From an uncultured Erysipelotrichaceae bacterium (GTDB lineage: Bacteria; Bacillota_I; Bacilli_A; Erysipelotrichales; Erysipelotrichaceae), in NCBI GenBank assembly GCA_902787775.1, contig CADAHV010000002.1:1-49470 (forward strand): a stretch of DNA of 49,470 nucleotides, in the 5' to 3' direction. Positions 34,338 through 46,358 of this stretch are shown here, piece after piece. Numbering within the stretch: the stretch's first letter is position 1; each line of letters begins with the position of its first letter. The notes beneath the pieces are model-generated. The model was not told the DNA's origin and did not search any database. It worked only from the letters and a program-made list of their open reading frames with translations. Position numbers and translations under genes: made by a program.

Positions 34338-35671
34338 GTGAATAAGGAACATCAAAGAGAAAATATTGAATTGATGAAAAAGATCCTGGTCTTTGCCTGG
34401 CCGATCATGGCGGCAAACATCTTACAGATCTCTTTCAATTTTGCCGATACCCTGGTGGTCGGCAACTTCGTCTCCGATAAGGGACTGGCAGCAGTCGGTT
34501 CGGCAGCACCGCTGATTGTCTTTTTTACCTGGGGACTCAACGGACTTTCTCTGGGCAGTGATGTTTTGATTTCCCGCATGATCGGGGCAAAAGAAAACGG
34601 AAAGATCGCCAAGGCTGTTTTTTCTTCAATCCTGGTGGCTTTATTCTTTGGCATAGGTATCGGTATTCTGGGAAATCTTTTGAGCAGTTTCTTTCTGAAG
34701 CTGCTTTCCACGCCGGAAGACATACTGAATGAGGCGTCCTTGTATACCAGGATCTATTTCCTGGCCTGTCCGGCGATCAGCCTGTATCATTTCGGCTCTT
34801 CCATTCTGCGTTCCAGTGGCAACACCAAGGATCCGACATTGTACCTTGGCCTGTCCGGTCTTTTGAATGTGGTGCTGAATCTGATCTTTGTGGCTTTTGC
34901 GCATCTGGGTATTGCCGGAGCTGCTGTTTCGACGGTGATCTCTCAATGTTTTTCTGCCTTTTTGATCCTGCGGCGCCTTTTAAGGGAAGAAGGTGTCATA
35001 GCCTTGTCTTTGGATCCCGGCCTTTTTGATTATCACCTGGCTTTGAAGATTTTGAGTTATGGTATCCCTTCGGCATTGCAGAATCAGCTCTTTTCTTTCA
35101 GCAATATCGTCATTCAGTCGGGCATCAACTCCTTTGGTTCCGCCTTCGTGGCGGCCAATACGGCTGCCAATATGTCTACGTCTTTGTCGACGCCTTTCCT
35201 TTGACATCGCTGACGTTCAATTCCCGCTACTATGGGGCAAAGGAATACGAAAAGATCAGGAAAGTGACCTGGATGACCTTCTTCATCTGCGGCATCGGTG
35301 CTTTTGCGATCGGTTCCTTCATTCTTTTGAACGGACCGTTTCTGCTTGGCTTGCTGACAAGGGAAGAGGAGATCATCTCTTTGGGCATGTACCGTCTAAG
35401 CTGCGTGACTTTCTTCCTTTTCCTGAATGGTCTTCTGGATGTGATCGTGAATTCAATCAGGGGGATGGGTCTCATTTATCTTCCGACGCTGATTACTCTG
35501 TTTGGCGTCTGCGGTTTTCGTCTGGTTTATCTGTATACCTATTTTGCCCTTCACCATACGCCGGTGGCTTTATACAGCTGTTTCCCGTTGAGCTGGATGC
35601 TGGCTTTGCTGATACAGCTGCCGATCTGGTTTATCCGCTACAGGCGGATCCGTCAGGAAAGGGGAAATTGA
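34338..35671 (+). pseudogene. MATE-family efflux transporter split by a frameshift near 35165-35175
   Basis: ORFs 34338-35204 (288 aa) and 35201-35671 (156 aa) together make one MATE-sized polytopic protein of about 440 aa. The MATE-like sequence YVYVFVDAFPLTSLTFNSRYYGAKEYEKI continues in the other frame upstream of 35201. Confidence 0.75.
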
Positions 35672-35709: not shown

Positions 35710-35738
35710 TTGGAAAGATGAAAGGTTTAGTATATAAT
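35710..35738 (+). promoter_or_regulatory. Candidate promoter of tRNA-Val (TTGGAA, 17-nt spacer, TATAAT)
   Basis: TTGGAA at 35710-35715 and TATAAT at 35733-35738, 13 nt before the tRNA 5' end. Confidence 0.45.
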
Positions 35739-35751
35739 TAATAAGGTATCC

Positions 35752-35827
35752 GGACACTTAGCTCAGTTGGGAGAGCACCTCCTTGACGTGGAGGGGGTCA
35801 GGGGTTCGAGTCCCTTAGTGTCCACCA
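35752..35827 (+). tRNA. tRNA-Val (anticodon GAC)
   Basis: The sequence is GGACACTTAGCTCAGTTGGGAGAGCACCTCC-TTGACGT-GGAGG..GGTTCGAGTCCC..GTGTCCACCA. Confidence 0.9.
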
Positions 35828-35840
35828 TTTTGAAAGTAAT

Positions 35841-35861
35841 GGCTCGTAAGAGCCTTTTTTC
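35841..35861 (+). terminator. Intrinsic terminator of tRNA-Val
   Basis: GGCTC (35841-35845) pairs with GAGCC (35850-35854), followed by T6. Confidence 0.65.
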
Positions 35862-35947: not shown

Positions 35948-37555
35948 ATGAAATGTCCCAATTGCAACGGAACCTTGTATTTCGATATTCCGTCACAGAA
36001 ACTGAAATGCCGCAACTGTGAAAGTGTTTTTAAACCGGAAGAGTACGAGGGAGACAACAGTGCCGAAGAAGACGTGATTGAGGGCGGAAAGATGTATATC
36101 TGTCAGAACTGCGGTGCCGAACTGATCAGCGCAAATGATGAAGCAGTCTCCTATTGCAGCTACTGCGGCAGTGAACAGATCCTGGAAGGGGAACTGACCG
36201 GCGTCAAAAAGCCGAAATACATTATGCCGTTTCGCATCTCTAAAGAAGAATGCAAGAAGATCTACGAGAAGGAAGTCAAAGGCAAGAACTATGTCCCGAA
36301 AGAGTTCAAGGATCCGCAGTTTATCGAACGGTTCCGTCCTTTCTATATCCCTTACTGGATGTATAATATCCGCTTCAGAGAGGATCCTTTCAAGATAAGC
36401 GGGCACAGACATTACACCAAGGGCAATTATGACTACGATGAAGACTATGATGTCACGGCCCAGCTGGATGAAACGACCTACGGGGTTCCTTTCGATGCCT
36501 CAAGAAATTTTGATGATACGATTGCCGAACACATCGCACCTTTCGCAAAGAGCAATATCAAGAACTATCATCCGGGCTATCTGGCCGGCATGTATGCCGA
36601 TTCGCCAAACGTGGATGCCAGACTCTATGAAGAGGAGGTTCTGGAGAAGGCCAGCAAGCTGGCAGTCGATTCTTTGGAAAACAAGCTCGGCGGCATGAGC
36701 CTTGATTTGCCGAAAAAGCCGAAAAAACTGCAGGAATTCCTGCGGGCCGAATATGGCAATGAAGAGGCGATCTATCTGCCGGTATGGTTTCTGACCTGGA
36801 GGAAGAATGACCGGGTCGCTTATGCGGTCGTCAATGGTCAAAGCGGCAAGATCCACATTGACCTGCCGGCTGATCTCAATGTCTTTTCCATCTACACGGC
36901 GATCGGGGCTGCCCTCTTGTTTGTCCTTTTGAGTCTGTTTGTTTCGGTCACATCGCGTTTTGTCATCTGGTTTTCCGCTTTGCTGGTATACCTGGTGGGA
37001 AGGCGCTATTACAGCGAACTTAAGCAGATCCGCAACCGGGAAAATCATGTCTTTGATAAGGGCTATCTGTTAAGTGAAGAAAAAGAACTGCCGATGTCGG
37101 AAAAGAAACGGAATCGTCTGAGAAAAAGAGTAATGAATACCTCCTTTGACTTTTCTGCTGTCATGATGGGGCTGTGCTTTGTCCTGGCTTTCATTGTCTT
37201 TATGTTTGCCGGCAGTTTTTATGATATTGCCGTATCTCAGATGGGAGCACTTGCTTTGACGTTTATCATTCTGATCCTTCAAAGCATCCGCTTTGTACGC
37301 CAGATCAATGTAGCCAGATATCTGAAAAACAAGCGTTCCATTCTGGTGTGTATTCTGGGAATGGGCTCGGTTGTCTATGCCTTTATGGTCGCTTATTTAC
37401 AGCCGGTCGAAGACTGGTGGTACTACCTCGGTTCTTTGATCTGTCTGGTTGCGGCCAGCGCCATGAGCATCGATCTGATCCTTCGCTATAACGAGACTTC
37501 CACAAGGCCTTTGCCTTCTTTCTACAGCCGTAAGGGAGGTGATGACCGTGCGTAA
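35948..37555 (+). CDS. Double zinc-ribbon membrane protein (YdjG-like core) with an extra polytopic C-terminal region
   Basis: KCPNCNGTLYF...KCRNCES and YICQNCGAE...YCSYCGS ribbons. Clearly homologous to ORF 42918-43961 over the first 320 aa or so. It then has about 5 additional TM segments. Confidence 0.8.
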   Translation: MKCPNCNGTLYFDIPSQKLKCRNCESVFKPEEYEGDNSAEEDVIEGGKMYICQNCGAELISANDEAVSYCSYCGSEQILEGELTGVKKPKYIMPFRISKEECKKIYEKEVKGKNYVPKEFKDPQFIERFRPFYIPYWMYNIRFREDPFKISGHRHYTKGNYDYDEDYDVTAQLDETTYGVPFDASRNFDDTIAEHIAPFAKSNIKNYHPGYLAGMYADSPNVDARLYEEEVLEKASKLAVDSLENKLGGMSLDLPKKPKKLQEFLRAEYGNEEAIYLPVWFLTWRKNDRVAYAVVNGQSGKIHIDLPADLNVFSIYTAIGAALLFVLLSLFVSVTSRFVIWFSALLVYLVGRRYYSELKQIRNRENHVFDKGYLLSEEKELPMSEKKRNRLRKRVMNTSFDFSAVMMGLCFVLAFIVFMFAGSFYDIAVSQMGALALTFIILILQSIRFVRQINVARYLKNKRSILVCILGMGSVVYAFMVAYLQPVEDWWYYLGSLICLVAASAMSIDLILRYNETSTRPLPSFYSRKGGDDRA

Positions 37556-38312
37556 ACTGATGAAAGTACTGATTCTCATCCTTCTGATGCTGCTGGCCAG
37601 TGAAACAGCTTTGGAAAATGTTTCTTGCGAAGGGGAATACAAAGTCATCATCGATGATGAACAGGATCTTCTGACCGAAAGTGAAGAAAAGAACCTGAAA
37701 GAAAAGATGTCGCAGGTGGCAGAATACGGCAACGTGGCTTTTGTCACGGTTTACCAGTATGAAGATACCGGTTCCTATGCCGAGAAGGTCTACCGTTCCT
37801 ATTTCGGTAGGGAAAGCGGCATGCTGTTTATGATCGACATGGGCAGAAGAAACATCTGGATCTTCTGCGATGGGGCGATCTACAGAGTGATCGACAAGGC
37901 TTATGCCTATACGATTACCGACAATATCTATCGTTATGCCAAAGACGGTGATTATTACAATTGTGCTTTAAGTGCTTTTGATCAGGCGTTGATCTTACTG
38001 AAAGGCGGCGCGATCGCGCAGCCGATGAAATACATCTCCAATGCGCTGATCGCCTGTGTTTTGGCATTATTGATCAATTTTATATTTTTGACTTATCAGA
38101 GAAACAACGACGAGACAATTATTGCTCGTTCTGTCCCGGCTTTGACGACAACGGTCGGGGCCTATATTCTGTCTAAAAGAGTGACCTCCCGCAACAAAAC
38201 GCGGCACGTTCAGTACAGCTCTTCTTCCGGCGGTTCATCCGGTGGCGGCTTTTCCGGTGGCGGCGGAGGAGGCGGCGGTTCTTCCGGCGGCGGCGGCGGT
38301 CACAGTTTCTAA
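37539..38312 (+). CDS. TPM-domain protein (signal peptide, TPM domain, TM, Gly-rich tail)
   Basis: The signal peptide is followed by IIDDEQDLLTESEEKNLKEKM...FVTV (TPM pattern). A TM ALIACVLALLINFIFL follows, and the tail ends SSSGGSSGGGFSGGGGGGGGSSGGGGGHSF. The start is ambiguous (GTG 37539, ATG 37542, GTG 37548 or ATG 37560) and overlaps or abuts the upstream stop at 37555. Confidence 0.8.
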   Translation: MMTVRKLMKVLILILLMLLASETALENVSCEGEYKVIIDDEQDLLTESEEKNLKEKMSQVAEYGNVAFVTVYQYEDTGSYAEKVYRSYFGRESGMLFMIDMGRRNIWIFCDGAIYRVIDKAYAYTITDNIYRYAKDGDYYNCALSAFDQALILLKGGAIAQPMKYISNALIACVLALLINFIFLTYQRNNDETIIARSVPALTTTVGAYILSKRVTSRNKTRHVQYSSSSGGSSGGGFSGGGGGGGGSSGGGGGHSF

Positions 38313-41399: not shown

Positions 41400-42850
41400 T
41401 GAAAAAGATGCTGTGCGTGATGATGGCCTTACTGATGCTGTGCGGATGCAATACGGTCATCGGCAATGAAGATACAAGCAGTACAACGGCTGTGGCCGAC
41501 AATACGAACTATACGGAAGGCGGAGCTGACGCAAGCTATGAGATCAGCGGCTCAACCTATATTTCATTAGGAAATGAAGATGTAAAGATCAATAAGGCCG
41601 GTACATATATCCTGGAGGGAACACTGAACGGAAGTGTCATCGTTGAAGTTTCCGACAGTGAAGATGTACAGCTGGTATTGAATAACGTCACGATCAATTC
41701 CGCTGATTTTGCCGGTATCTATATCGTGGAAGGTGATGAGATCACGATCACTCTGGCAGAAGGCAGCGTCAACACGATCAGTGATTCTTCAGCATACACC
41801 CAGATCGACAGCAATGAAGTCGACGCCTTAATCTATTCCAAGGCAGATCTGTTTATCAACGGCGAAGGCAGCCTGGTGCTCAATTCCGCATACAATCACG
41901 GCATTGTTTCCAAGGATGATCTTGTCGTGACTTCAGGAAACTTTACGATCGATGTTGCCGGAGCCGGCATGAAAGGCAAGGACTGCCTGATCATCTCGGA
42001 TGGCACTTATGTGATCCGTTCAGGCAAGGACGGCTTGAAATCCGATAACGATGAGGATGCAGAAAGAGGCTACATTACGATTTCCGGCGGCAGCTTTGAG
42101 ATCACATCGGCTGGTGATGGCATCTACGGTTTGAACGCAGTGAATATTGAAGGCGGCACATTCAAGATTACGACAAGCACGTCTTCTTCCGATTCGGCCA
42201 AGGCCATCAAATCTGATCTTTCCGTGACGATCTCAGGCGGCGAATTCACAATTGATTCCTGTGATGACGGCATTCATTCCGATCAGGATGTTCTGATAAA
42301 AGGCGGAAACTTCAATATTGTCAGCGATGATGATGCGATCCATGGTGACAGCAAGGTTCAGATCGATGCAGGCGATTTCACCATCAATGCGCATGAAGGC
42401 ATTGAAGCTACCTATGTACTGCTTAACGGCGGCAACATCGATATCACGGCAACAGATGACGGCATCAATGCCGGTCAGAAGGTGAACACCTATACGGCAA
42501 CCATCGAGATCAACGATGGTACCATCAAGATCGATATGGGTCAGGGTGATACCGATGCGGTGGATTCCAACGGTTACATCTATATCAACGGCGGTACGCT
42601 GGAGATCAATGCACAGTCACCGTTTGATTACGATATGGGTGCAGAACTCAACGGCGGTACAGTCATTGTCAATGGAAGCGAAGTCAATTCCATTTCCAAT
42701 CAGATGATGGGCGGTTTCGGCGGCATGGGCATGCATCAGATGCCGGGAGGAATGAACCAAGAGAATAATGAATACAATGAGGGACCGGGCTACCAGGAAG
42801 GGCAGTCCGGTTCCTATGGTCCGTTTGGCGGCAAGCCGGGAAGACACTGA
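41399..42850 (+). CDS. Beta-helix repeat lipoprotein (Cthe_2159-like carbohydrate-binding family) with a Gly/Met-rich tail
   Basis: Lipobox LMLCGC. About 11 tandem units of about 22 aa (for example DDGIHSDQDVLIKGGNFNIVS and DDAIHGDSKVQIDAGDFTINA). The tail reads MMGGFGGMGMHQMPGGM.... TAATG overlap with the upstream gene. Confidence 0.7.
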   Translation: MKKMLCVMMALLMLCGCNTVIGNEDTSSTTAVADNTNYTEGGADASYEISGSTYISLGNEDVKINKAGTYILEGTLNGSVIVEVSDSEDVQLVLNNVTINSADFAGIYIVEGDEITITLAEGSVNTISDSSAYTQIDSNEVDALIYSKADLFINGEGSLVLNSAYNHGIVSKDDLVVTSGNFTIDVAGAGMKGKDCLIISDGTYVIRSGKDGLKSDNDEDAERGYITISGGSFEITSAGDGIYGLNAVNIEGGTFKITTSTSSSDSAKAIKSDLSVTISGGEFTIDSCDDGIHSDQDVLIKGGNFNIVSDDDAIHGDSKVQIDAGDFTINAHEGIEATYVLLNGGNIDITATDDGINAGQKVNTYTATIEINDGTIKIDMGQGDTDAVDSNGYIYINGGTLEINAQSPFDYDMGAELNGGTVIVNGSEVNSISNQMMGGFGGMGMHQMPGGMNQENNEYNEGPGYQEGQSGSYGPFGGKPGRH

Positions 42851-42917
42851 GTCTTCCTTTTTCATATATAAAATAGATGAAGATAAAAAGTTGTATAATG
42901 AAATAAAGGTTGAAAAA

Positions 42918-43961
42918 ATGAGCGAATTGAAAGATTTTAAATGTCCCAACTGCGGAGGCCGTTTAGAGTTCGACGCCCAGACACAGAAACTGAAATGTCC
43001 ATATTGCGACGGAACGTTTGATCCGGAAGTTTTTAATGAGGGAGATAACTATACTGTCAGCAGTGAAAAATGGGAAGATGACGACATCGTTGTCTATACC
43101 TGCAAGTCCTGCGGCGGCACGATCATGGCGGATCGGGATACGGCAGCCAGCAGCTGTCCGTATTGCGGCAATCCGGTCGTAATGACCAGCAACGTCTCCG
43201 GCATATATAAACCAAAGAAGGTCATTCCTTTCCTGCTGGATAAGAAACAGGCGAAGGAACGCTATAAGAATTTCCTTAAAGGCAAAGTTCTTTTGCCGGA
43301 TGCCTTCAAAAATGAGGCTGTCATCGACGAGATGAAAGGCATCTATGTTCCTTACTGGCTCTTTGGCGGCAAAGCCAATGCCAGAATGTGGTTTGATGCG
43401 ACACGAGTCAGACACTGGAACGAAGGGGAATACATGTGTACGGAGACCAGTTACTACAAGGTCTTCCGTTCCGGTTCGGTCCGTTTCGCCGATGTTCCGG
43501 TCGATGCATCGGGCAAGATTGACGATCTTCTCACCGAATCGATTGAACCGTTCGATATCAAAGAGGCGAAGGTATTCTCCGAAAATTATCTGGCCGGCTA
43601 TTATGCCGACAAGTACAGCGTTTCTGCCGAAGAATCCAGACAGAAGGCAAATTCCAGAATCGCCAATTCGACGACATCTTTATTTGCTTCAACGACCAGG
43701 ATGTATGATTCCTGTGCTCCGTCTTCTTCCTCGATTTCGATCAGTGACGGCCGGCAGGATTATGTCATGTATCCGGTGTGGCTGCTCAATATCAAATACG
43801 GAAGCAAGCTTTACACTTTTGCGATGAACGGGCAGACCGGCAAGTTCGTCGGTGAACTGCCAATCGATCGGGGGAAACTGGGGCGCATTGCCATATCGGT
43901 CTTCCTTGGCGTTACGGCTGCCATGACGGCATTACAGTATCTGCTGTATTTGGTGAGGTGA
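42918..43961 (+). CDS. Double zinc-ribbon, C-terminally TM-anchored protein (YdjG-like)
   Basis: KCPNCGGRLEF...KCPYCDG and YTCKSCGG...CPYCGN ribbons with a single C-terminal TM. Start set at MSELKDF (42918); the upstream ORF extension overlaps the lipoprotein gene. Confidence 0.8.
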   Translation: MSELKDFKCPNCGGRLEFDAQTQKLKCPYCDGTFDPEVFNEGDNYTVSSEKWEDDDIVVYTCKSCGGTIMADRDTAASSCPYCGNPVVMTSNVSGIYKPKKVIPFLLDKKQAKERYKNFLKGKVLLPDAFKNEAVIDEMKGIYVPYWLFGGKANARMWFDATRVRHWNEGEYMCTETSYYKVFRSGSVRFADVPVDASGKIDDLLTESIEPFDIKEAKVFSENYLAGYYADKYSVSAEESRQKANSRIANSTTSLFASTTRMYDSCAPSSSSISISDGRQDYVMYPVWLLNIKYGSKLYTFAMNGQTGKFVGELPIDRGKLGRIAISVFLGVTAAMTALQYLLYLVR

Positions 43962-43965
43962 TCCT

Positions 43966-45204
43966 ATGAAGAAAATATTCAGTGTGATCCTCCTTGCCCT
44001 GACCTTACTGTGGGCAAACAACATCTATGCGGCAGAAGACCATGTGATTCTGGAGAACTATCAGGATTTCATGAGCAGGGACCAGTACGATCAGCTCAAT
44101 GAAGATCTTGCACAGATCCAGGAAAATTACGACGTCAATATCTATTTCATCTACGATACTTCGATCGATGATTCCGATAACGGCGTAAAGGCATATGCCG
44201 ATGAATTCCTTGCTTCGCATTCGTTTAATTCCAACAATGTTGCGATCGTCATGTCTTCTTCCTATTATTACGTGGCGGCCAACGGTGACGGGGCAAACGA
44301 AGTCATCAAAAGGGATGAGGCGGTCTTTGACAGGTTCTATTCGCGGGCTTCCATGCTTTCAAGCAGCGATCCGAACGCCTTCTTTGAAGGAATTACGAAT
44401 GCCTACCAGTACGTGCTGGAACTGATCAATGCCAAGACTTACCAGTCGGACGCACCGGTCTCAAAAGAAAAAGCACTGGTCAATGACTTCTCCAACATCA
44501 TGAGCGATGATGAAGAAGAAAGGCTCAACCGAAAACTGCAGAAGATCAAAGACAAATACGGCTTCGATGCAGTTGTCGTTACAACGGATTCGTTCAACGG
44601 CATGTCGGCGAGAGACTATGCGGATGATTTCTATGATTACAGCCAGTATTCGAAGGACGGCATCCTCTTTGTCCTGAACATGACGGAGAGAACCTGGTAT
44701 GTTTCAACAAAGGGAAAGGGAATCGACTATTTTACCGATTACGGTATTGATGCGATTTTTGAAGAAATGGCTGAAGATCTTTCCGACGGCAAGTATTATG
44801 ATGCTTTCGTGATCTATGCCGACAAAGTTGAAAAGTATGTCGTCAACGGCATGCAGGGCAATGTCGTCGATGTAGGCAATGAAGAAAAGTCATTCGGTGT
44901 ATTCAATGTCATGATCTCGGCCATCGTCGGCGCGATATCATCGCTCATCACCTCTTTGTCCTTGAGAGGAAGGATGAAGAACGTAAGCAGGCAGCATTTT
45001 GCGCGAAACTATATCGTTTCTGATACCTTTGACATCAACGGCGCTTCGGATATGCTGGTAAACAGGCATGTTTCCAGAACCCGCAGACCGCGCCGTGATG
45101 ACAGTATAGGCAGAGGTTCGGGACCGAGCCATATGGGCGGCGGTTCCAAAGTACATACGTCTTCAAGTGGTTCTTCCCATGGCGGCCATGGCGGACACTT
45201 TTAG
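43966..45204 (+). CDS. Tandem TPM-domain protein (signal peptide, two TPM domains, TM, Gly/His-rich tail; YdjH-like)
   Basis: Signal peptide LLWANNIYAAED. There are two TPM-like units, LENYQDFMSRDQYDQLNEDL... and VNDFSNIMSDDEEERLNRKLQKI...VVVTT. The TM is VMISAIVGAISSLITSL and the tail ends GSSHGGHGGHF. Confidence 0.8.
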   Translation: MKKIFSVILLALTLLWANNIYAAEDHVILENYQDFMSRDQYDQLNEDLAQIQENYDVNIYFIYDTSIDDSDNGVKAYADEFLASHSFNSNNVAIVMSSSYYYVAANGDGANEVIKRDEAVFDRFYSRASMLSSSDPNAFFEGITNAYQYVLELINAKTYQSDAPVSKEKALVNDFSNIMSDDEEERLNRKLQKIKDKYGFDAVVVTTDSFNGMSARDYADDFYDYSQYSKDGILFVLNMTERTWYVSTKGKGIDYFTDYGIDAIFEEMAEDLSDGKYYDAFVIYADKVEKYVVNGMQGNVVDVGNEEKSFGVFNVMISAIVGAISSLITSLSLRGRMKNVSRQHFARNYIVSDTFDINGASDMLVNRHVSRTRRPRRDDSIGRGSGPSHMGGGSKVHTSSSGSSHGGHGGHF

Positions 45205-45241
45205 AAAATAGATAGATAATTAAATCAAAGGAGGAATAAAA

Positions 45242-46312
45242 ATGGGTTTAATTAAAGCATTGACCGGGTCTGTAATCGGTACGGTACTTGACACATGGAA
45301 GGACTATTTTGTTTGTGATTCCCTTGATAACGATACCTTGATGGTAAAAGGCACAAAGAGGGGCTTCGGCGGTTCAGGCGATGTCATCACAAACGGTTCC
45401 GGCATCATCGTCAATGAAGGACAGTGTGCTCTGATCATTGAAGAAGGCAATATTCTGGAAGTTGCCAACGAGCCGGGAAGCTATACATTTGATTCTTCAC
45501 TTTCACCAAGTATTTTTGACGGTGGTCTTGAAGGCCTCAAGAACTCTTTCAAGGATGCGGTAGAAAGATTCACATTCGGCGGTGAAGTCAACAAGTCACA
45601 GCGCGTTTACTATGTCAACACCAAGGAGATCATGGAAAACCGTTTCGGTACGGCTACACCGATCCCGTTCAGAGTTATTTTCGATAAGACGACCGGTTCG
45701 GAAGTCGAAATCTCTGTCAAATGCAATGGTGAATTCACCTTCAGAATCGTCAATCCGGTTGTCTTCTATCAGAAGGTCGCCGGCAATAAAGCCGACAGAT
45801 TTGAAAAGGACGAACTGATTTCCATTATGAAGTCCGAAATGATGGATGCCTTGAATCCGGCATTCGGCAAGCTTTCCGATCTGAACATCCGTTATTCTGA
45901 ACTTCCTTCTCATACAACGGAGATCAAGGATGCCTTAAGAGAAGCCTTAAGGACTCGCTGGGAAGAAAACAGAGGTATCGCTCTTGATTCGCTGACGATC
46001 AATTCCGTCACTATTCCGGAAGCAGATGCTGAAAAGATCAAGAACATTCAGTTCTCTTTCATCAACAGAGACAAGGATACAGCCAATGCAACGATCGTTT
46101 CCGCAACTGCCGATGCGATCAGAGATGCTGCAAACAACGCCAACGGTGCAGCGACCGGTTTCATGAATGTCAATATGGCAACCAATACCGGCGCACAGTT
46201 CTTACAGCAGAACAATACAGCACAGGGTGGCGGCGGTTTCTGTCCGTTCTGCGGCCAACCGGTACCATCAGGTGCTAAATTCTGCCCAAGCTGCGGTAAA
46301 GCATTGCAATAG
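45242..46312 (+). CDS. SPFH/band-7-like protein with a C-terminal zinc ribbon (YdjI-like)
   Basis: 356 aa. The N-terminus is MGLIKALTGSVIGTVLDTWKDYF, followed by a central SPFH-like region. The C-terminus FCPFCGQPVPSGAKFCPSCG is a CxxC...CxxC ribbon. Confidence 0.75.
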   Translation: MGLIKALTGSVIGTVLDTWKDYFVCDSLDNDTLMVKGTKRGFGGSGDVITNGSGIIVNEGQCALIIEEGNILEVANEPGSYTFDSSLSPSIFDGGLEGLKNSFKDAVERFTFGGEVNKSQRVYYVNTKEIMENRFGTATPIPFRVIFDKTTGSEVEISVKCNGEFTFRIVNPVVFYQKVAGNKADRFEKDELISIMKSEMMDALNPAFGKLSDLNIRYSELPSHTTEIKDALREALRTRWEENRGIALDSLTINSVTIPEADAEKIKNIQFSFINRDKDTANATIVSATADAIRDAANNANGAATGFMNVNMATNTGAQFLQQNNTAQGGGGFCPFCGQPVPSGAKFCPSCGKALQ

Positions 46313-46330
46313 GCCTTAACAAAGCTCTGA

Positions 46331-46358
46331 AAGCCCGTCCTCGTGACGGGCTTTTTTT
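46331..46358 (+). terminator. Strong intrinsic terminator after the SPFH gene
   Basis: AAGCCCGTC (46331-46339) pairs with GACGGGCTT (46345-46353), followed by a T-run. Confidence 0.85.

Follow-up and report, generated by a model that had tools for sequence, protein, structure and literature searches.

A PspA-Free SamGHI (YdjGHI)-Type Gene Module in a Rumen Erysipelotrichaceae Bacterium

Gene Organization and Transcription Signals

The stretch of DNA analysed here (the window) comprises 49,470 nucleotides of the genome of an uncultured rumen Erysipelotrichaceae bacterium (GCA_902787775.1, contig CADAHV010000002.1) and carries, closely packed on its forward strand, three genes that we denote G, H, and I: a SamG/YdjG-type gene (42918-43961, 347 amino acids), a SamH/YdjH-type gene (43966-45204, 412 amino acids), and a SamI/YdjI-type gene (45242-46312, 356 amino acids). 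Each has its own ribosome-binding site, AAAGG at 42906-42910 for G, one lying inside the 3′ end of G for H, and AAGGAGG for I. Gaps of 4 nt separate G from H, 37 nt H from I, and 67 nt the upstream gene from G. These gaps and coordinates, together with a TATAAT hexamer at 42894-42899, were found on re-reading the sequence to be just as given in a first-pass annotation, made from the DNA letters alone.

That annotation also described the 67-nt gap as free of any terminator, and here it was wrong. At 42838-42858 on the forward strand, a terminator-like hairpin whose 8-bp stem leads into TTTTT shares bases with the stop codon of the preceding gene, Cthe_2159; the 50 nt that were folded give a dG of -16.1 kcal/mol and z -3.1. 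A hairpin with a T-run precedes G in 20 of 20 relatives, the stem sequences differing among them. This putative terminator separates the VTC operon from the G-H-I module. The hexamer at 42894-42899, present on the forward strand as TGTATAAT, is the -10 element of the module's probable own promoter, whose -35 element is weak, and nearly every relative keeps (T/A)TGTATAAT at a distance of about 15-25 nt before the start of G. At the other end, a strong intrinsic terminator (46329-46355, forward strand; 11-bp stem with 6 GC pairs, then TTTTTTT; dG -17.3 kcal/mol, z -4.8) stands before a Na/Pi-PhoU transporter gene, and none of 200 shuffled sequences folded equally well. Because a hairpin and a conserved TGTATAAT element precede G and a strong terminator lies beyond I, the three genes are probably transcribed as a unit by themselves, apart from the VTC and Na/Pi genes. 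An Rfam scan detected no regulatory RNA near the module, its matches being tRNAs only. Psp promoters are stress-responsive, depending on sigma-W in B. subtilis and on sigma-54/PspF in E. coli; the window trio shows a housekeeping-type -10 box rather than a known sigma-W promoter.

The Encoded Proteins and Their Bacillus subtilis Counterparts

The domain architectures of the three products, which the first-pass annotation had sketched correctly as a double zinc-ribbon protein with a C-terminal transmembrane (TM) segment, a secreted tandem TPM protein with a TM anchor and a Gly/His tail, and an SPFH-like protein ending in a CxxC...CxxC ribbon, could be delineated by profile and fold searches. 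Protein G begins with two zinc ribbons, continues in an alpha/beta domain of about 230 residues, and has a TM segment at residues 321-346 of 347; since this single TM segment is C-terminal, G is predicted to be a wholly cytoplasmic, tail-anchored protein. All eight zinc-ribbon cysteines are invariant in 11 homologues, and the N-terminus, MSELK.FKCPNC, is conserved. A PDB sequence search with G returned zinc-ribbon matches only, and a fold search with its central domain of about 230 residues gave no match to any solved fold; the central domain of YdjG has been claimed to be NTF2-like and related to YpeB (PMC11237479). Pfam matches to G are likewise confined to its zinc ribbons, which suggests that no Pfam model is dedicated to this protein.

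Protein H matches the TPM family in two stretches (PF04536, E 5.8e-35 in a profile search) flanked by a signal-like segment at residues 4-23 and a TM segment at 309-333. The second TPM domain (about 166-305) is the counterpart of the single one in other H proteins, while the first (about 23-165) is an extra, divergent copy, a duplication that is a local peculiarity. H is thus predicted to be a type-I membrane protein that displays two TPM domains outside and keeps a cytoplasmic tail of about 80 residues. This tail, 79 residues rich in Gly, Ser, and His and ending in HTSSSGSSHGGHGGHF, is conserved across families, as would be expected of a binding surface. A PDB sequence search with H yielded only one weak TPM match, 7tbr.

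Protein I consists of an SPFH domain followed, after a linker of low complexity (Ala/Asn/Gly), by a C-terminal CxxC...CxxC zinc ribbon (Zn_Ribbon_1); it is predicted to be soluble, with no TM segment. Its match to PF13421 (Band_7_1) scores 74 bits against a cut-off of 24, a weak membership when compared to the 160-300 bits of other members. Whereas a PDB sequence search with I found no match, a fold search with its predicted SPFH core retrieved stomatin, prohibitin, HflK/C, erlin, QmcA, and flotillin (E 1e-7 to 1e-3). The predicted core fold of I resembles that of SPFH proteins that form rings or cages (stomatin, prohibitin, HflK/C, QmcA, flotillin), but I, unlike them, lacks its own membrane anchor and ends in a zinc ribbon, and in place of their long coiled coils it has only short helices predicted with low confidence.

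The B. subtilis proteins YdjG, YdjH, and YdjI, since renamed SamG, SamH, and SamI, are encoded in the operon pspA-samGHI (PMC8581546, PMC13713150), and all three of their published architectures are matched by the products of the window genes (PMC11237479, PMC8581546, PMC13713150), as the first-pass annotation had proposed: YdjG and G share the double zinc ribbon and C-terminal TM segment, YdjH and H a TPM ectodomain, TM segment, and low-complexity tail, and YdjI and I an SPFH domain without a TM segment, a low-complexity linker, and a zinc finger. Gene order (G-H-I), tight spacing, and location on one strand are also common to both, while H has two TPM domains in the window as against one in B. 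subtilis. Homology to the B. subtilis proteins is proposed from these published architectures, from the shared PF13421 family, which is also matched in a B. subtilis control genome, and from similarity to the pspA-G-I operons described below. In B. subtilis, SamG and SamH recruit SamI, SamH is restrained by SamI, the colony phenotype does not require PspA, and even there a terminator lies between pspA and ydjG (PMC8581546, PMC13713150). The remark in the first-pass annotation that the mechanism of such a module is essentially unknown is, with these reports on its B. subtilis counterpart, partly outdated.

The window holds a second, paralogous pair 5 kb upstream of the trio and on the same strand, another local peculiarity. 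Its first gene, G′ (35948-37555), encodes a 535-residue paralogue of G (32% identity over 336 residues; E 3.6e-58 to the G profile and 2e-52 in a second comparison) with about five extra C-terminal TM helices, and its second, H′ (37539-38312), whose start overlaps the end of G′, a 257-residue membrane protein with a single TPM domain (PF04536, E 1.5e-16) and a Gly-rich tail. No SPFH gene stands beside this pair. In another family (L073) a G′-H′ pair likewise adjoins a G-H pair, and a 535-residue ORF between the two pairs has no Pfam match.

Occurrence of the Module With and Without PspA

Every one of 56 related loci keeps the three genes together as a block, in one of two gene orders, G-H-I or I-G-H. 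No further conserved partner that might substitute for PspA was found beside the I-G-H trios; the best candidate, shared by 8 of 27 loci, was rejected as clade synteny only. Homologues in a plasmid collection come from Enterococcus, Vibrio, Paracoccus, and Comamonas. That of Enterococcus gallinarum (NZ_CP116511.1, whose annotations read SPFH domain-containing protein, hypothetical protein, and TPM domain-containing protein), which exemplifies the I-G-H trios found in other gut Firmicutes, is a self-contained block of the same three families, also without PspA, with the order I-G-H and an H of about 265 residues that has a single TPM domain.

Unlike the B. subtilis operon, the window trio has no pspA upstream or elsewhere in the genome: with a PF04012 match above the cut-off taken as the test for PspA, none was present in the window, immediately outside it, or anywhere else in the assembly, in agreement with the earlier statement that no PspA/IM30 gene is present in the window. 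The assembly is 87.8% complete and in 209 contigs, and a canonical Psp-linked system, with a pspA or liaH gene hidden in the unassembled part of the genome (roughly 12%) and its product recruited by the trio, could be imagined, all the more as, of 39 genomes from this family, 2 (L076, L077) have an unlinked PspA. We consider this highly improbable, given that both same-genus genomes, each 99% complete, bear the module yet yield no match to PF04012, and that among 34 trio-bearing genomes PspA scored above the cut-off in one and was missing from 33.

The wider survey points the same way. A G-type gene occurs in 73 genomes of a 401-genome sample of the class, at 80 loci, 63 of which have an SPFH gene within 4 kb of G; PspA is found anywhere in 7 of these 73 genomes, and adjacent to G in 4 of the 73. 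This class sample, like a phylum sample, includes no recognisable Bacillus genome. The absence of PspA, which had been put forward as a peculiarity of this locus, is therefore none: SamGHI-type modules of the sampled class, and of gut Clostridia, are nearly always, and normally, free of PspA. Hence, the PspA-free module is the usual form in related bacteria and the locus is an ordinary one; and, PspA being so rarely present, the published view of YdjG/H/I as PspA-localisation factors applies to a minority arrangement in the sampled class and gut Clostridia. Where PspA does adjoin, as in the pspA-G-I operons of one family (f16: L068, L069, L079), G is homologous to that of the window (E 1e-46), as is the SPFH-zinc-ribbon protein to I (E 5e-14), and the two genes are likewise adjacent on one strand. 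These operons differ in having PspA directly upstream and no TPM gene, and their G belongs to another G subfamily than that of the window, grouped with H-less I-G pairs.

Proposed Mode of Action

We regard it as quite likely that the three genes constitute an autonomous, PspA-independent SamGHI (YdjGHI)-type module. Going by the B. subtilis homologues, G and H would serve as docking partners for I at the cytoplasmic face of the membrane, where I may oligomerise like other SPFH proteins and restrain or organise H, and through the resulting G-H-I complex cell physiology and membrane fluidity would be coupled to envelope state. With no PspA in the genus, the output of the module could not be PspA recruitment and must presumably lie in the G-H-I complex itself.

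The neighbouring genes suggest another role, in phosphate or polyphosphate handling, with the TPM ectodomains of H acting as a surface phosphatase or a sensor of a phosphate compound, controlled from inside by G and I, alongside the VTC-type polyphosphate genes upstream and the Na/Pi-PhoU transporter downstream. The order VTC-DUF4956-Cthe_2159, G-H-I, Na/Pi-PhoU does recur in about 20 related species, and the G′-H′ genes place a second TPM pair within the same 12-kb block. Yet this linkage is confined to one Erysipelotrichaceae sub-clade, whose I proteins are at least 61% identical, and is missing from the next relatives (L016, L020, L025, L028, L029) and from all I-G-H loci, so that shared ancestry explains it, and conserved terminators on both sides set the trio apart. 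As to the chemistry, literature cited in PMC13713150 and PMC11237479 reports phosphatase activity for TPM domains, but that activity is itself disputed (PMC11237479). A phosphate-handling function thus seems unlikely to us.

Zinc-ribbon and SPFH proteins occur in some defence islands. The induction of B. subtilis pspA-ydjGHI by phage SPP1 is cited in PMC11153139. An anti-phage or abortive-infection module is nonetheless a very doubtful reading of the trio, since PADLOC models gave no meaningful match (best E 0.008-0.009, over short stretches), matches in PHROGs were to zinc ribbons only, and the surroundings of the trio are of a stable, housekeeping kind, with synteny kept from species to species and neither defence nor mobile-element genes close by.

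One may speculate further, on a rather unlikely note, that the G-H-I trio without PspA, together with the even more widespread G-I pair, is the original self-sufficient envelope-surveillance unit, to which PspA became attached in few lineages only; in the present clade this unit would have been elaborated by the doubled TPM ectodomain and the polytopic G′-H′ pair and tied functionally to the VTC and phosphate-uptake genes, with H reading or acting on a surface phosphate compound. Taken by itself, the locus is of minor importance, a further copy of a module that is very common: G is matched by 7060 cluster representatives among 1.84 billion.

Architecture of the three gene products

The three open reading frames that the first-pass annotation had described as a module like ydjG-ydjH-ydjI of Bacillus subtilis are real and lie where it had placed them, and their identification as a SamGHI (YdjGHI)-type system is supported, since the published descriptions of the B. 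subtilis proteins fit all three products. The first, G (42918-43961, + strand, 347 aa), has an ATG start codon with AAAGG ahead of it and, according to domain searches, carries two zinc ribbons, all eight cysteines of which are invariant in an alignment of 11 sequences, followed by a domain of about 230 aa and one hydrophobic helix (residues 321-346), an arrangement that marks G as a predicted cytoplasmic, tail-anchored protein. Its N-terminus, MSELK.FKCPNC, is kept among relatives. Of 1.84 billion cluster representatives, 7060 match G at E ≤1e-3 and 1637 still do so at E ≤1e-30.

H (43966-45204, + strand, 412 aa, with a ribosome-binding site ahead) has a signal-like segment (residues 4-23), two TPM stretches (PF04536, E 5.8e-35), a predicted transmembrane (TM) helix (309-333) and, beyond it, a predicted 79-residue cytoplasmic tail. 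The membrane-proximal TPM2 is the counterpart of the single TPM domain in short H proteins, and TPM1, a divergent additional copy, shares 25% identity with TPM2 (E 8e-8). The tail (residues 334-412; window positions 44963-45201) is conserved across families, in the H proteins of related loci L005-L060, with a juxtamembrane block L(R/K)GQxKSV, a second block NY(I/V)V..SF..TG.SD.LVNRHV(S/T)R and a terminal HTSSSGxSHGGxGGxF. Such conservation suggests a binding surface, and a docking motif seems a better description of the tail than mere low complexity.

I (45242-46312, + strand, 356 aa, likewise preceded by a ribosome-binding site) scores 74 bits on PF13421 (Band_7_1; cut-off 24) and ends in a zinc ribbon found by domain search; TM prediction found no helix in it. 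Its structure model averages a pLDDT of 69; apart from a disordered stretch around residues 87-117, most of the SPFH core exceeds 75. A fold search relates the model to stomatin, prohibitin, HflK/C, erlin, QmcA and flotillin, with E-values of 1e-7 to 1e-3. These proteins all build membrane-bound rings or cages, but their long coiled coils are missing from I, and for this reason no cage is claimed for it.

In the published accounts, YdjG consists of two zinc ribbons, an uncharacterised domain and a TM segment, and the band-7 protein of the system bears a C-terminal zinc ribbon (PMC11237479). Alongside these architectures, the PF13421 membership common to the window's I and the B. subtilis control genome, and the similarity of the window's G (E 1e-46) and I (E 5e-14) to PspA-linked operons, support assignment of the trio to the YdjGHI type.

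Transcriptional organization and gene neighbourhood

The 67-nt gap ahead of G, initially read as free of a terminator, proved otherwise: a terminator scan finds a hairpin (42838-42858) with TTTTT after it, overlapping the stop codon of the upstream Cthe_2159 gene, in a 50-nt stretch with a folding energy of -16.1 kcal/mol (z -3.1). When the matching intergenic region was extracted from 20 related species, a hairpin and T-run were found directly past the stop codon in every one, with stems of differing sequence, as would be expected if the terminator is functional, and TGTATAAT was found about 15-25 nt upstream of the G start in nearly all. Given these conserved elements and a strong terminator downstream of I (46329-46355; 11-bp stem, z -4.8), the trio is most likely transcribed on its own, apart from the VTC operon before it and the Na/Pi-PhoU gene after it. 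In B. subtilis, a terminator lies between pspA and ydjG (PMC8581546).

Rumen and gut Erysipelotrichaceae (Solobacterium-like MAGs) supply related loci, with more distant ones in Oscillospiraceae, Lachnospiraceae and Peptococcaceae, and the three genes are kept together in all 56 loci. In close relatives the genes run G-H-I, H is about 400 aa long, VTC-DUF4956-Cthe_2159 lie upstream and the Na/Pi gene lies downstream, neighbours that suggest a phosphate or polyphosphate role, although this linkage is confined to one sub-clade and terminators bound the trio. In the distant loci the genes run I-G-H and H is shorter, about 265 aa; a neighbourhood comparison found no additional gene common to their surroundings, so the trio is self-contained. 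A defence role finds no support.

In public annotation, SPFH, hypothetical and TPM proteins are encoded consecutively in Enterococcus gallinarum, and an SPFH-HTH fusion adjoins a "TFIIB-type zinc ribbon" protein in Comamonas. This SPFH partner of G in Comamonas odontotermitis (NZ_CP083452.1; locus L083, 3591-4691; 292 bits on PF13421) has a C-terminal HTH_17 DNA-binding domain where the zinc ribbon would be, a fusion that hints at direct transcriptional output in some lineages.

Distribution of PspA

The first-pass annotation had singled out the lack of PspA. A PF04012 search of the window's own assembly (87.8% complete) returned nothing above the cut-off, only two weak matches to ORFs 988 and 512 aa long, and a PspA hidden in this genome is unlikely, as neither same-genus genome of the collection (both 99% complete, both with the module) contains one. 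The absence thus stands, but not as a point of interest, since it is the norm. PspA exceeds the cut-off in one of the 34 genomes behind the related loci. The class sample (401 genomes) holds 80 G-type loci in 73 genomes, and 63 of these loci have a PF13421 gene within 4 kb; PspA occurs in 10 of 399 scored genomes and in seven of the 73 G-bearing ones, adjoining G in only four, tallies that are valid for the class and phylum samples only, which consist of small genomes (up to 3.8 Mb), Bacillus-like ones being seemingly absent. From the same-genus genomes, the related loci and these counts, the PspA-free state is the rule and not a feature of the window.

All four PspA-adjacent G loci come from one genus and have the operon pspA-G-I, without a TPM gene; L068, L069 and L079, class-sample loci of the anonymous family f16, are the sole PspA-linked versions found, with this gene order. 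In the G protein tree, PspA-linked G proteins group with H-less I-G pairs, one from the betaproteobacterium Comamonas, separately from the trio clade that contains the window's G.

Proposed mode of action

What the sequences establish is how the three proteins are placed relative to the membrane, that the linkage of their genes is conserved, and that PspA is absent. In B. subtilis, YdjI is brought to the membrane by YdjG and YdjH, and PspA foci require YdjI (PMC8581546); when SamI (YdjI) is lost, a phenotype appears that depends on SamH but does not require PspA (PMC13713150). By analogy, G and the H tail would dock I at the inner membrane face, where I may oligomerise and restrain or organise H, and the resulting complex could couple envelope state to physiology. 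With PspA absent, the output would have to lie inside the G-H-I complex.

Paralogous genes and further observations

About 5 kb upstream of the trio there is a second, paralogous pair, to which no SPFH gene is adjacent. G' (35948-37555, + strand, 535 aa; 32% identical to G) combines two zinc ribbons and the G domain with roughly five additional TM helices, and H' (37539-38312, + strand) has one TPM domain and a Gly-rich tail, the 5' end of its gene overlapping the 3' end of G'. Desulfoferrodoxin and CDF transporter genes follow downstream. A similar pair adjoins a G-H pair at L073, in a genome of another family (G356 contig C8, 3245-9386), where G, H, a 535-aa ORF without a Pfam match, G' and H' share a single strand; the SPFH gene of that genome is on a separate contig. 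The window's genome also carries, on another contig (L078; G000 contig C87, 2674-4332), a third G-like gene of 553 aa that is very divergent; two segments of it match the G profile (E 2e-21 and 1e-6).

A MATE-type efflux gene (34338-35671) is apparently split into overlapping frames (34338-35204 and 35201-35671), which could reflect a frameshift or sequencing error. Directly upstream of G' lies a tRNA gene (35752-35824), with a promoter-like site ahead of it (35710-35738) and a small terminator-like hairpin past it (35841-35854).
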